A stretch of DNA of 41,582 nucleotides from Parcubacteria group bacterium GW2011_GWA1_40_21 (GTDB lineage: Bacteria > Patescibacteriota > Minisyncoccia > Phycocordibacterales > GWA1-40-21). The notes under the pieces were generated by a model. It did not search any database. It was given only the letters and a program-made list of their open reading frames with translations, and was not told the DNA's origin. A program made the translations under genes and the position numbers. Each line of letters opens with the position of its first letter. The stretch's first letter is position 1. This document shows, piece after piece, positions 1 to 8,019 of this stretch. The stretch is taken from positions 1 through 41,582 of the forward strand of contig LBYO01000003.1 in the NCBI GenBank assembly GCA_000996205.1. Direction: 5' to 3'.

Positions 1-55
1 CGACAAAAGAAATGTCCTCATCAATTCCACCGGCCAGATTTCCATCGGCAGATAG
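1..55 (+). CDS. 3' end of an upstream gene, probably a FimT/GspH-like minor pilin (partial)
   Basis: Frame 2 reads DKRNVLINSTGQISIGR* (TAG at 53-55), directly upstream of three pilin genes. Confidence 0.5.
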   Translation, partial: DKRNVLINSTGQISIGR

Positions 56-79
56 AATTAAAAATGATCAAACAGCCAA

Positions 80-823
80 ATGAACACTAATATTATTACA
101 AAAAAACTCTCCCCTAAAAAGCTAAAAAGCTACCCGCCCGCCACGACTGCTGTCGGGCATGTCGGGCGCGGCAAGCTACAAGCTAACCGTTTTCATCCAT
201 CAGCTTCCCGAAACCTACAACTCCGCCTCATCGGCGGACGAGCCACAACCAAAAACCCAACCTCATCGGCGGGCAGGCTACAACCTAATCGCGGTTTCAC
301 CCTGATTGAAATGCTCGTCTCAATTTCCGTCTTTATGGTGGTTATGCTTGTCGCCGCGAGCTCGCTTTTGAGCATTATTGACGGCAACAACAAAGCCCAG
401 TCCCTGAAGTCCGCGATAAACAATTTGAATTTCGCACTTGAGAGTATGCAGAAAAATATAAGGGTGGGAACAAGTTATTCGGGGGGTGGGAGTTGTTCTC
501 CCGCCGATACTTGCATAATCTTCGATTCCTACAAAGACCTTAATGGTGATGGTAATATGGATAATGATACTGTTATATATAAGTATAATGATACCGAAAA
601 ATCAATAGAGAGATGTGAGAATATCTCAGGCGTAACTTGTAGTTTAAGCAGTAATTTCACCAGATTGACCGCGCCGGAAGTAAAAATAACTGATATGAAA
701 TTTTATATTGACAGCAGTTCTCAGCCAAGAGTCTTGATTACCATAAGTGGCGAAGCGGGAACTAAGGAAAGAATAAAAACAAATTTTAATCTTCAGACGA
801 CCGTATCGCAAAGATCATTCTAA
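80..823 (+). CDS. Type IV minor pilin (PilW/PulJ-like) with an abnormally long, repeat-derived leader
   Basis: Class III signal G|FTLIEMLVSISVF followed by a hydrophobic helix; about 72-aa leader; DLNGDGNMD Ca-binding-like motif. Confidence 0.88.
   Translation: MNTNIITKKLSPKKLKSYPPATTAVGHVGRGKLQANRFHPSASRNLQLRLIGGRATTKNPTSSAGRLQPNRGFTLIEMLVSISVFMVVMLVAASSLLSIIDGNNKAQSLKSAINNLNFALESMQKNIRVGTSYSGGGSCSPADTCIIFDSYKDLNGDGNMDNDTVIYKYNDTEKSIERCENISGVTCSLSSNFTRLTAPEVKITDMKFYIDSSSQPRVLITISGEAGTKERIKTNFNLQTTVSQRSF
134..172 (+). repeat. 39-nt GC-rich module A, identical copy at 939-977
   Basis: ccgcccgccacgactgctgtcgggcatgtcgggcgcggc occurs twice, 39/39 identical, in different reading frames. Confidence 0.95.
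211..294 (+). repeat. 84-nt module B, copy at 1513-1596
   Basis: 83/84 identical; contains the palindrome tccgcctcatcggcgga, ggcgggcagg and ACCTACA heptamers. Confidence 0.95.
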
Positions 824-843
824 TTGAGTAAGATACAATCTAT

Positions 844-1494
844 ATGAAATTTATAAAAATAATAAAAAATAAAATCCTAGCCGCCAGTTGCAATTTGTCA
901 TGCGTCAGGAAACTCTTCCCTAAAAACCTACCACCTATCCGCCCGCCACGACTGCTGTCGGGCATGTCGGGCGCGGCCGCCTACAACCTACAACCTTCCG
1001 CCAAAGGTTTCACCCTCATAGAAACTCTCGTCGCCATCTCAATCCTTATGGTCGCGGTCGCGAGCCCCTTAACTATCGCCCAGAAAGGATTAGCTTCAGC
1101 TATCTATGCCAAAGATCAAATCATCGCCTCTTATCTGGCGCAAGACGCGATAGAATACATAATAAACGCGAGCGATAAAAATGTCGCGGATGGAAAAGGC
1201 TGGCTTCTGGGAATAAGCGATAATTGCGGAACGGCTTGCGCGGTTAACACAAGAATAGACAGCGGAATTGCCTCTTGCGCTGGAACTTGCGACGCTCTTA
1301 ATTACAACGAGTCAACAAATATTTACAGCCATGATTCTACAGGTGGTGACAATAAAGCGTCGCCATTCACGAGAACAGTTAAAGCTACAGAAGGTCCGAC
1401 CGACGAAGCGCTGATTACCGTGACGATGTCTTGGAAAGACAAAGGAGCTGATAGGAGCCTTAATTTTTACACGAGAATATTTAATTGGAGATAA
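844..1494 (+). CDS. Type IV minor pilin (PilV/PulI-like)
   Basis: G|FTLIETLVAISIL motif; A..LAQDAIE helix; C-terminal F.R.V / ITVTMSW; long leader. Confidence 0.88.
   Translation: MKFIKIIKNKILAASCNLSCVRKLFPKNLPPIRPPRLLSGMSGAAAYNLQPSAKGFTLIETLVAISILMVAVASPLTIAQKGLASAIYAKDQIIASYLAQDAIEYIINASDKNVADGKGWLLGISDNCGTACAVNTRIDSGIASCAGTCDALNYNESTNIYSHDSTGGDNKASPFTRTVKATEGPTDEALITVTMSWKDKGADRSLNFYTRIFNWR
939..977 (+). repeat. Module A, second copy
   Basis: Identical to 134-172; flanked by ACCTAC(A/C) heptamers. Confidence 0.95.
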
Positions 1495-1501
1495 TAATAT
1501 T

Positions 1502-2086
1502 ATGGCAAATAAAAACCTACCACTCCGCCTCATCGGCGGACGAGCCACAACCAAAAACCCAACCTCATCGGCGGGCAGGCTACAACCTAATCGCGGATTC
1601 GCGATGCTGTTTTCCGTCCTCGTATCCAGCTTGCTTGTCGTTATCGGACTGTCAATCTTCAACATCACCCTCAAAGAATTGACCATTTCAACCTCGGCAA
1701 GAGAATCTCAGACGGCTTTTTACGCCGCCAACAGCGGACTGGAATGCGCCCTTCGGTGGGATAATTTAAATGGAAATGGCTTAAGAAGCGCCTTCGCTTC
1801 CACTTCCGCTTCGGATGAAATTGACAGTGCCAAAAGCGTAATAGCTTTATGCAATACCGTGAGAGTAAACAGCGCCACCTCCGCCACTACGGAATTTGAA
1901 TTTAAAGTAAATAACTCGGGTGATTCCAATGGTCCTTGCGCCAAAGTTAAGGTTGTAAAGACTCCCGGTTCTCCGACTGTTGAAAAGATGACCACGGTAA
2001 TTGAATCTCGTGGCAAGAACATTTGCGACACAAGCGGCAGAAGAGTTGAAAGAGGCTTGAAAGCCACTATAATTACGCAGATGTAG
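1502..2086 (+). CDS. PilX/PulK-like minor pilin
   Basis: G|FAMLFSVLV (no Glu at +5), S..AFYAANSGLECAL, C-terminal IESRG...R.VERGL. Confidence 0.85.
   Translation: MANKNLPLRLIGGRATTKNPTSSAGRLQPNRGFAMLFSVLVSSLLVVIGLSIFNITLKELTISTSARESQTAFYAANSGLECALRWDNLNGNGLRSAFASTSASDEIDSAKSVIALCNTVRVNSATSATTEFEFKVNNSGDSNGPCAKVKVVKTPGSPTVEKMTTVIESRGKNICDTSGRRVERGLKATIITQM
1513..1596 (+). repeat. Module B, second copy
   Basis: 83/84 identical to 211-294. Confidence 0.95.
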
Positions 2087-2125
2087 CCAGGCGAAGCTCG
2101 TAGCTTTTTAGCTTGTTAGGTATAA

Positions 2126-4237
<2,112 letters not shown>

Positions 4238-4826: not shown

Positions 4827-4920
4827 AAGGTTATAGGTATTAGGTTGTAGGTTTAAGATAGGAAAATTAATTTTTTAATCCAAAACCTATAACCTAACAC
4901 CTACAAACTAAAACCTTCCG
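4827..4920. repeat. Inverted pair of 7-mer (ACCTA(C/T)A-type) arrays
   Basis: Left arm aaggttataggtattaggttgtaggttt; right arm aaacctataacctaacacctacaaactaaaacc. Confidence 0.9.
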
Positions 4921-7305: not shown

Positions 7306-8019
7306 TCATTCTTTGCGCAGGGGCGCTTTTTTAATTATCTCAATTATTTCATCGTCTGAATCTACTATTTTATATAGATCCATATCATCTTCGTCAATAG
7401 CACTTATCTCTTTGAAGAGAGTTTCTCTGATGAATTCATCAACTTTGTCCCAGTGCTTCTTGCCGACCAAAACAATCGGAACTTTCGGTATCTTTTTTGT
7501 TTGGACGAGGGTTACTATTTCAAATAATTCGTCCATAGTTCCAAATCCTCCGGGGAAAAACAGGTAAGTCTCGGCGGAAAATGAGAGCATTACTTTTCTG
7601 CTGAAGAAAAAGCTGAATTCTCTGAAATTGGTCAAATATTTATTTGCCGGAAATTCTTCAGGAAGTTTGATTATAAGACCCAATGAGTCGCCGCCGGCCT
7701 CGAAGGCTCCTTTGTTGGCGGCCTCCATAATTCCGGGGCCGCCTCCGCTCACAACCGCGTAATTGAGCTCCTTTACTATTCTTGCGGAAAGTTCGGCGGC
7801 TCGCTTAAAATATTCGTTGTCTTCCGTAAATCTTGAGGAACCGAAAAAAGTCACGGATCTGGGATATTTCTTAATTAATTCAAAACCAGACTCAAACTCG
7901 CCATTTATCACAACCATTCTTTTTTTTATCGCTTCTTCAACTTTCTGGAGCGTAAGAGGAAGTTCCGCTTCACAGCATAGCTTTCGGTACTGGCTGATTT
8001 TTGATCCATTTTCTTTCAT
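7306..8019 (-). CDS. LOG family protein (TIGR00730, YgdH/PpnN-like)
   Basis: SVTFFGSSR, SGGGPGIMEAANKGA, FF.RK, PGGFGTMDELFE. Confidence 0.93.
   Translation of the reverse strand: MKENGSKISQYRKLCCEAELPLTLQKVEEAIKKRMVVINGEFESGFELIKKYPRSVTFFGSSRFTEDNEYFKRAAELSARIVKELNYAVVSGGGPGIMEAANKGAFEAGGDSLGLIIKLPEEFPANKYLTNFREFSFFFSRKVMLSFSAETYLFFPGGFGTMDELFEIVTLVQTKKIPKVPIVLVGKKHWDKVDEFIRETLFKEISAIDEDDMDLYKIVDSDDEIIEIIKKAPLRKE

Follow-up and report, generated by a model that had tools for sequence, protein, structure and literature searches.

Heptamer arrays and small GC palindromes in the prepilin leader-coding segments of a Parcubacteria bacterium

The closest known system to the repeats described here is that of the Rickettsia palindromic elements (RPE), which are about 150 bp long (Ogata 2000, as cited in a passage of PMC10969869). 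Tandem heptanucleotides with the unit TAACTGA have been described from marine Beggiatoaceae, cyanobacteria and Bacteroidetes (excerpt of PMC4679880), and in Neisseria the opa genes carry CTCTT repeats in the part coding for the leader peptide (excerpt of PMC3745409). Prepilins of the type IVb and Tad/Flp kinds have leaders of 15 to 30 aa (excerpt of PMC4471445). Here we analyze the start of a 41,582-nt stretch of DNA of Parcubacteria group bacterium GW2011_GWA1_40_21 (contig LBYO01000003.1, positions 1 to 41,582, forward strand; hereafter the window), where three consecutive prepilin-like genes, ORF1 to ORF3, have long leaders that contain heptamer arrays and two shared modules, A and B. Our reading, to which we give a probability of roughly 0.7, is that dispersed selfish or neutral repeats colonized the leader-coding segments, are translated and are cut off with the leader. 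A limited search of titles and abstracts retrieved no account of repeats making up prepilin leaders, or of repeats of this sort in Patescibacteria.

The genome of the window (G000) amounts to 760,931 bp in 26 contigs, with 40% G+C, and was compared with three genomes of the same genus (G001 to G003). For the operon, the relatives were the genus members plus eight from outside the genus (L005 to L012), and 12 operons were read. Leader lengths were counted from the first in-frame ATG in the genus and from the first in-frame Met in L005 to L012. Reads were those of groundwater metagenomes (four runs) in the form of Logan contigs, which drop rare variants.

Shared modules in the prepilin leaders

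The operon runs in the order prepilin peptidase, pilin-1, ORF1, ORF2, ORF3 and then ligA, and its pilin genes share pieces of DNA within their leaders (Table 1). The 38-nt pattern of module A is found exactly at 135-172 and 940-977, with no matches in 100 shuffles, and the preceding C extends the identity to the 39 nt that a preliminary description of this DNA had reported for leaders 1 and 2. The wider 69-nt unit around the two copies is 84% alike, and the pilin-1 leader, where contig C7 ends, contains a third exact copy. The module reads PPATTAVGHVGRG in ORF1, RPPRLLSGMSGA in ORF2 and ARHDCCRACRAR in pilin-1, i.e., it is used in all three frames (two had been noticed before), which confirms that the DNA is conserved rather than the peptide. 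No stop codon occurs in any of its six frames, and its hairpin has a predicted energy of -24 to -27 kcal/mol (z about -2.3). Module B had been described as common to leaders 1 and 3 over 83 of 84 nt; the sharing holds, and the extent is 86 identical positions of 88, with an exact core of 70 nt. Its first hairpin is intact and the second degenerate (z -1.4), and thus the statement that both modules are GC palindromes applies in full to A and, in B, to the first hairpin. Of module B, it does not hold that it ends just before the cleavage site, as it extends through the Gly(-1) and Phe(+1) codons. ACCTAC/AGCTAC heptamers flank both modules, and the same heptamers are found between genes, as the preliminary description had it. 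A search of positions 1 to 2400 against Rfam (E up to 10) gave only three chance-level matches, far below the gathering scores.

The three genes are prepilin-like. ORF1 to ORF3 are all on the + strand, and each has a site of the form G-F(T/A)(L/M)(I/L)(E/F), to be cut between G and F, followed by a hydrophobic stretch. In ORF1 and ORF2 we found the class III pilin signature (Gly(-1), Phe(+1), Glu(+5), about 20 hydrophobic residues and a match to the N-methylation motif model) and also a dedicated prepilin peptidase, encoded directly 5' of pilin-1 (C7:22716-23564; A24_N_bact, 1.6e-30; Peptidase_A24, 6e-10). Pfam N_methyl covers aa 70-92 of ORF1 (2e-8) and aa 53-73 of ORF2 (1.5e-6), and NCBIfam TIGR02532 is above its cut-off for both. 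Matches below the cut-off connect ORF1 with GspJ/ComGE, ORF2 with GspI/PilV and ORF3 with PilX_N/PilV (PilX_N, 0.018). The site of ORF3, G-FAMLF, lacks Glu5, as in PilX/GspK. Of 11 loci read in relatives, nine (L002 and L005 to L012, not L003 or L004) have an ortholog with FA(L/M)LF. The AlphaFold prediction for ORF1, for which 12 orthologs were used, has a mean pLDDT of 72. Residues 1-72 are without secondary structure (block means of 44 to 51 over 1-70), and the mature part consists of a helix of 55 residues (75-129) and then a beta-sheet of seven strands. Its best matches in the PDB, a Thermus type IV-like pilin and EpsJ/GspJ, are weak (E of 5e-3 to 1e-2, TM of 0.33 to 0.56), and none reaches an E value of 1e-3.

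Table 1. Features at the start of the window (positions of the window).
Feature	Coordinates	Strand	Remarks
Pilin-1 gene, 3' end	1-55	+	stop TAG 53-55; 5' part with 60-aa leader at the end of C7
ORF1, prepilin-like, GspJ/PilW-like	80-823	+	leader 80-295 (72 aa), Gly(-1) 293-295, mature part 296-820
5' boundary motif and AGCTA-type heptamers (CTCTCCCCTAAAAAGCTAAAAAGCTAC)	100-133	+	repeat families D3, D6
Module A, copy 1	134-172	+	39 nt, 13 codons, GC palindrome; in ORF1 leader
Module B, copy 1	211-298	+	heptamer, intact hairpin TCCGCCTCATCGGCGGA, spacer, degenerate hairpin, GGCTACAACCTAAT, Gly-Phe codons
ORF2, prepilin-like, GspI/PilV-like	844-1494	+	leader 844-1008 (55 aa)
Module A, copy 2	939-977	+	between ACCTACCACCTAT and GCCTACAACCTACAACCTT; in ORF2 leader
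ORF3, prepilin-like without Glu5, PilX/GspK-like	1502-2086	+	leader 1502-1597 (32 aa)
Module B, copy 2	1513-1600	+	in ORF3 leader
Intergenic array element 5' of ligA	2100-2160		reverse AGCTA units, T-rich centre, forward ACCTA units

The leaders are too long for the 6 to 26 aa expected of type IV pilins, though they are hydrophilic and basic; two of the lengths given before (72 and 32 aa) were correct, and the second is 55 aa instead of 56. They hold 14, 10 and 6 K+R in ORF1, ORF2 and ORF3, respectively, and no D or E, a composition that fits a leader staying in the cytoplasm (excerpt of PMC4471445). In the eight relatives from outside the genus, the leaders of the same four genes have only about 9 to 17 aa, and these short-leader genes are orthologous to the mature parts of the long-leader pilins. 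Within the genus (four members), they range from 16 to 107 aa, and the additional residues are translations of arrays and hairpins, of the NLQPTTY and PASSAGRLQP types. This supports long leaders as recent, genus-specific expansions, apparently by repeats, of leaders that were ancestrally short.

Probable translation through the repeats

If the repeats are translated, the start codon upstream of them should be in frame with the pilin. An ATG is present in 12 of the genus leaders. In 11 of these, the ATG that comes first after the stop of the preceding gene is in frame and open up to the G-F site, for which P is 4.7e-5 at a chance of 1/3. The 11 leaders all differ in length (180, 165, 96, 213, 135, 177, 141, 111, 147, 321 and 48 nt). 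The exception is ORF1, whose leader starts at the second ATG, 16 nt after the first, and a 13th leader (pilin-1 of G001) has only TTG codons in frame. Because the frame is kept although the lengths all differ, it is most likely that the repeats are translated and removed with the leader.

An alternative to this interpretation holds that the modules are 5' untranslated elements tuning initiation, with translation starting within or after them. Arrays do stop 1 to 14 nt before the ATG of many genes and are oriented toward the gene; CCTA occurs within 25 nt upstream of 20 of 425 long ORFs, and only 52 of the 425 have a GGAG-like site. In a second major-pilin-like gene (C7:22074) there are in-frame GTGs at -22 and -29 codons, and a comparable role has been proposed for the TAACTGA repeats (excerpt of PMC4679880). 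However, ORF1, ORF3, pilin-1 and most of the congener leaders have no in-frame ATG, GTG or TTG between the repeats and the G-F site, the frame is kept in 11 of 12 leaders of differing length, and the heptamers have no complement in the 16S rRNA (0 TAGGT in 2375 nt). For ORF1 and ORF3, the stretch without such starts extends from the modules to the cleavage site, which goes against the starts downstream of the modules that the preliminary description had named as its refutation; ORF2 does have an ATG there, at 964. We consider initiation within or downstream of the repeats unlikely.

Under the reading that the repeats are translated and cut off, heptamer arrays with small GC palindromes nested in them would have settled, in this genus only, in leader-coding segments, and would be transcribed and translated as parts of very long, basic and disordered class III leaders. 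Such leaders would remain in the cytoplasm and be cut at G-F by the prepilin peptidase, and this removal would leave the mature pilins unchanged. Their tolerance might have several sources: ACCTACA/ACCTACC arrays are stop-free in the sense direction and would yield neutral peptides (TYNLQPT), module A amounts to whole codons with no stop in six frames, and a leader may need little beyond its hydrophilic or basic character and the final Gly. Near-identical paralogous leaders would then result from recent insertion, or from gene conversion between neighboring leaders, anchored on one side by the shared heptamers and on the other by the helix codons for the conserved FT(L)(I/V)E. The elements would be selfish or neutral DNA like the RPE and would need no role in the cell.

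Several facts pull in the other direction. The four genomes behind the probability of 4.7e-5 are kin. The in-frame ATG of ORF2 at 964 lies inside module A, 15 codons before the Phe, and would give a leader of 15 aa. Elsewhere, heptamer arrays are mostly 5' untranslated and end a few nt before an ATG, and leaders of 55 to 107 aa are far beyond the 6 to 26 aa given in the excerpt of PMC4471445. Read-through is not clean everywhere either, as fmt and lepA of G000 shift by +1 across the same hairpin (CCGCCTCATCGGCGGGCAGGCTACAACC). Finally, none of the listed Logan pieces spans a complete module plus 31 nt to its left and right. It should be noted that the Logan pieces covering 1-159, 265-968, 948-1596 and 1567-2400 (two samples) match at 100% and have their ends inside the modules, so they neither support nor refute the arrangement of the modules.

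This last point bears on the idea that the identical copies are an assembly artefact, with repeats collapsed or wrongly threaded, another of the refutations foreseen. The Logan contigs of the four runs stop inside A and B, and the metagenome-assembled genome breaks inside pilin-1, between C7 and C3 (position 1 of the window is the first base of C3). Against it, L040, a contig of a different assembly, shows no difference from the window over 1-1629, with module A at 135 and 940 and module B at 211 and 1513. A metagenome contig, L039, contains the last 6000 nt of C7 at 100%, then 468 nt, and then window positions 1-294 at 100%, and carries pilin-1 and ORF1 with their A copies. In addition, the gene order is the same in 11 related operons and the modules are short (39 and 88 nt). 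An artefact is therefore very improbable, the same modules standing at the same places in L040 and L039.

Repeat families, their other sites and strain variation

Two kinds of dispersed repeats are found in G000, namely arrays of ACCTACA-type heptamers (units ACCTACA, ACCTACC and AGCTACA) and small GC hairpins. The GC palindromes within the arrays are module A and, as the core of module B, a hairpin unit of 17 nt. There are 132 sites of CTACAACC in the genome, about 10-fold over what its composition predicts. The 17-mer ACCTAMMACCTAMMACC has 111 matches, and 24, 17 and 62 in the three congeners; of 37 other relatives, 35 have none and two have 1 and 3, and the reversed 17-mer used as a control gave 0 in all the genomes searched. 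The hairpin core of module B, CCTCATCGGCGG, is present in nine copies on five contigs of G000. These families are a genus-level expansion, and the modules belong to them, in line with the earlier proposal that they are shared mobile DNA.

The arrays are mostly intergenic and oriented toward the downstream gene, with 3' ends a few nt before the ATG or at an ACCTTCT 5' of TTGACA-like sites, and many are divergent palindromic pairs around AAGAAATTAATTTCTT. Throughout the genome there are intergenic regions that are palindromes as a whole, made of reverse heptamers, a T/A-rich centre (often AAGAAATTAATTTCTT) and forward heptamers (e.g., C1:16950-17045, C12:8270-8370 and window 2100-2160). The first arm comes after a stop codon and the second reaches up to the next ATG, and such regions could combine a terminator with an unstructured leader free of G. 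In the window, the forward units of this kind stop 5 nt before the ATG at 2165. The AGCTA-type units at 100-133 and 2100-2133 also form an inverted pair (I1; 34 nt, 82% complementary) that brackets ORF1 to ORF3, probably by chance, arrays being so common. A further dispersed GC repeat family (GTCATTCCCGC...GCGGGAATGAC), translated as IPAQAGIQ or SFPRRRES, was seen in G000 (C2:~100-300 and 14800; C4:~15700 and 16900) and also within the 107-aa ORF2 leader of G002 (L003).

We also considered the heptamers as a substitute for Shine-Dalgarno sites and rejected this, the 16S rRNA gene (C1:20956-23315) being without TAGGT or any longer complement. The 16S rRNA match itself (L024) spans 2360 nt for a model of 1533 positions, which implies one or more large insertions in the gene, and the region of its 3' end also looks interrupted.

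Arrays of ACCTACA/ACCTACC are stop-free in the three sense frames, where they encode peptides of the TYNLQPT or TYHLPPT type. Their antisense has TAG in all three frames per 21 nt, and ACCTAAA units have TAA in one sense frame. Inside long ORFs, sense matches far outnumber antisense ones. A strict two-unit array within the first 250 nt occurs in 4 of 10 pilin-like genes and in 2 of 526 other long ORFs (Fisher p of 9e-7, the pilin-like class being a crude one). By eye, we recognized eight pilin-like genes in G000, six of which have repeats in the leader. The enrichment supports the suggestion that a cleaved leader is a safe haven for repeats; as the only haven it fails, given the copies in genes for cysteine desulfurase, KsgA, an XerD-like recombinase, a 1656-aa protein, LepA, Fmt and SufB.

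In two other pilin leaders (C7:22033 and C19:5543) there are perfect runs of at least four units, and the unit of 7 is not divisible by 3. The tracts might then be slipped-strand switches, with a pilin going off or on as the addition or removal of a single unit changes the frame, for which the CTCTT tracts of Neisseria opa are a precedent (excerpt of PMC3745409). The fmt gene of G000 is indeed 7 nt longer than its G003 ortholog across an array, and out of frame. Yet the arrays of ORF1 to ORF3 have only two imperfect units each, 12 of the 12 leaders tested are in the ON frame, and no heptamer length differences separate the leaders of the window from those of L040, or those of C7 from L039 or L042. 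No indel over the modules is listed in the contigs of the four runs, where rare variants are dropped. A tract of varying length that switches the frame, the mark of a phase-variable contingency locus, was thus not seen in this weak test, in contigs that hide rare variants, and we regard slippage as rather improbable. A broader version, in which leader tracts are contingency switches for individual major or minor pilins and the breaks in fmt and lepA reflect the same slippage or a rescue by recoding at the hairpin, also strikes us as unlikely; if true, it would give an ultra-small bacterium opa-like variation of its pilus.

Repeats are read in frame in genes unrelated to pili, which, like the short leaders outside the genus and the kept frame, speaks for their translation in the leaders. 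In G000 these are genes for a cysteine desulfurase (Aminotran_5, class-V aminotransferase; read KNLSPRLIGGQATT), KsgA (RrnaAD; an insert of 32 aa), an XerD-like recombinase (Phage_integrase; read TPPYNLQPTTYNL) and a surface protein of 1656 aa with Laminin_G_3. This last one (C9:5182-10149, minus strand; L028) looks secreted, has Laminin_G_3 and concanavalin-like domains, and contains three heptamer-array inserts within its first 200 residues. In G001 to G003, lepA and fmt have arrays in a loop, in frame. The situation is different in G000, where fmt (~4844-4919, minus strand) and lepA (~7700-7800, plus strand) on C23 (L013:1045-1120 and ~3900-4000) are the single copies of both genes and each needs a +1 shift across the hairpin. 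By hand count, the insert in fmt has 44 nt in G000 vs 37 nt in G003, i.e., one heptamer more, and TAC codons 28 nt apart flank the hairpin in both genes. One could imagine from this that modules are removed or skipped at expression, by a tiny intron, ribosomal hopping or +1 frameshifting, and that the real leaders are short. But the hairpin is in frame in the cysteine desulfurase, ORF1, ORF3 and two leaders of G002, all of which a skip of 28 nt would break; fmt and lepA are in frame through arrays and module A at the same loops in the three congeners and other strains; and there is no Rfam match. Skipping is hardly credible. As five other contexts have this hairpin in frame, we tentatively favor slippage, decay of the genes or an error in the consensus over recoding for fmt and lepA. 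Recoding at the hairpin, by a hop or a +1 shift, was set aside on the strength of these contexts and the congeners.

Module A seems to be mobile beyond the genome of the window. Its exact 27-nt core gave no matches among species-representative genomes; a degenerate pattern of the module retrieved three records from these genomes and 16 metagenome contigs. Four of the contigs have it in frame, in genes for an XerD-like protein (L038), lepA (L043, 621 aa open), fmt (L046) and an unnamed ORF (L037), and most of the other copies lie between ACCTAC and AACCT of an array. One copy stands apart, L034:4579-4612 (labelled Candidatus Kerfeldbacteria), which lies within sufB in antisense but in frame; it has no heptamers at its sides and is bracketed by a 12-nt direct repeat (GTCGGGCGTGGC) that is a possible target duplication. 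Overall, the copies of module A use three frames in sense and one in antisense. Its core also appeared in other contexts in runs X5 and X7 (e.g., followed by GGGAGAGGATGGAGAG...ATG, with loose ends at window positions 133 and 168), from which further organisms at the site would carry it.

The ends of the leaders have a history different from that of the mature parts. Over the last 60 nt, leaders paired within the same genome are 98% (ORF1 and ORF3 of G000), 82% (pilin-1 and ORF2 of G000), 88% (pilin-1 and ORF3 of G003) and 78% (pilin-1 and ORF1 of G002) alike, vs only 50 to 75% for orthologous leaders. Over the first 150 nt of the mature parts, it is the orthologs that are closer (76 to 85%, vs 52 to 64% for paralogs). 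Leader 3' ends thus group by genome and mature parts by orthology, and the partner leaders differ between genomes, a pattern that points to gene conversion or to repeated insertion of the same element. This grouping is what one would expect if the modules are recombination points, as had been proposed; the swapping or deletion of pilins that the proposal included was found in none of the 12 operons read, and the gene order is unchanged. Within the population, L040 agrees with the window at every position of 1-1629 and 1991-2114. The part between these, 1630-1990, falls in the mature domain of ORF3, and there L040 differs by 43 mismatches and by in-frame deletions of 6 nt and 3 nt. This difference is a within-population allelic mosaic of a minor pilin, the 5' limit of which is not assignable to module B.

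Significance and comparison with known systems

We regard the repeats in the prepilin leaders as a new, RPE-like form of selfish DNA in coding sequence. On this view, even the coding sequence of a streamlined genome of 0.76 Mb can be extensively reshaped by repeats, and class III leaders, being cleaved, are particularly permissive to them. Provided that the long precursors are processed, prepilin peptidases would set hardly any limit to the length of a leader. For annotation, long N-terminal "extensions" of pilins in this lineage should be taken as repeat insertions. The repeats also mark insertion-tolerant sites in LepA, Fmt, KsgA, XerD and SufB, and the system can be used to study how small palindromes and 7-nt arrays spread and are homogenized within an operon.

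Heptamer repeats are also known from cyanobacteria as the STRR heptamers. The arrays agree with the TAACTGA type in being lineage-specific 7-nt tandem units that are mostly intergenic, point forward to the gene and end just before its start codon, in host genomes poor in Shine-Dalgarno sites; in both cases the few copies in ORFs are in the stop-free orientation. The unit is different, and here GC palindromes are nested in the arrays. Unlike in the TAACTGA repeats, the forward orientation is stop-free, so the arrays enter 5' coding regions. The likeness to opa is that a tandem repeat with a non-triplet unit sits in a surface-protein gene, within the segment coding for a signal sequence that is taken off; however, opa tracts are long, perfect and shown to vary, whereas those of ORF1 to ORF3 are short and imperfect, with no length variation seen. 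With the type IVb and Tad prepilins the leaders share the class III signal, a longer hydrophilic leader ending in Gly, and the predicted cleavage on the cytoplasmic side. They differ in length (32 to 72 aa, and 107 aa in a congener) and in being built of repeat DNA, and the mature parts, like the operon, belong to the type IVa or type II secretion system minor-pilin kind.

Small, structured, multi-copy and sometimes intragenic elements include REP/BIME, ERIC, BOX and miniature inverted-repeat transposable elements (excerpt of PMC10969869). Unlike these, no terminal inverted repeat with target duplication can be defined for the elements described here, and no transposase is linked to them: module A is itself a hairpin, its array flanks are heptamers, and a 12-nt direct repeat flanks it only in L034. 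The RPE remain closer, being multi-copy, dispersed palindromes of a small genome found between genes and, at permissive sites, in frame in unrelated housekeeping genes, as is the case here. The differences are that the elements of this genus are of 39 nt and about 17 to 21 nt, vs about 150 bp (100 to 150 bp with one conserved peptide per element being typical of RPE), that module A, read in three frames, gives no conserved peptide, and that they are nested in 7-nt tandem arrays and accumulate in leaders that are predicted to be cleaved.

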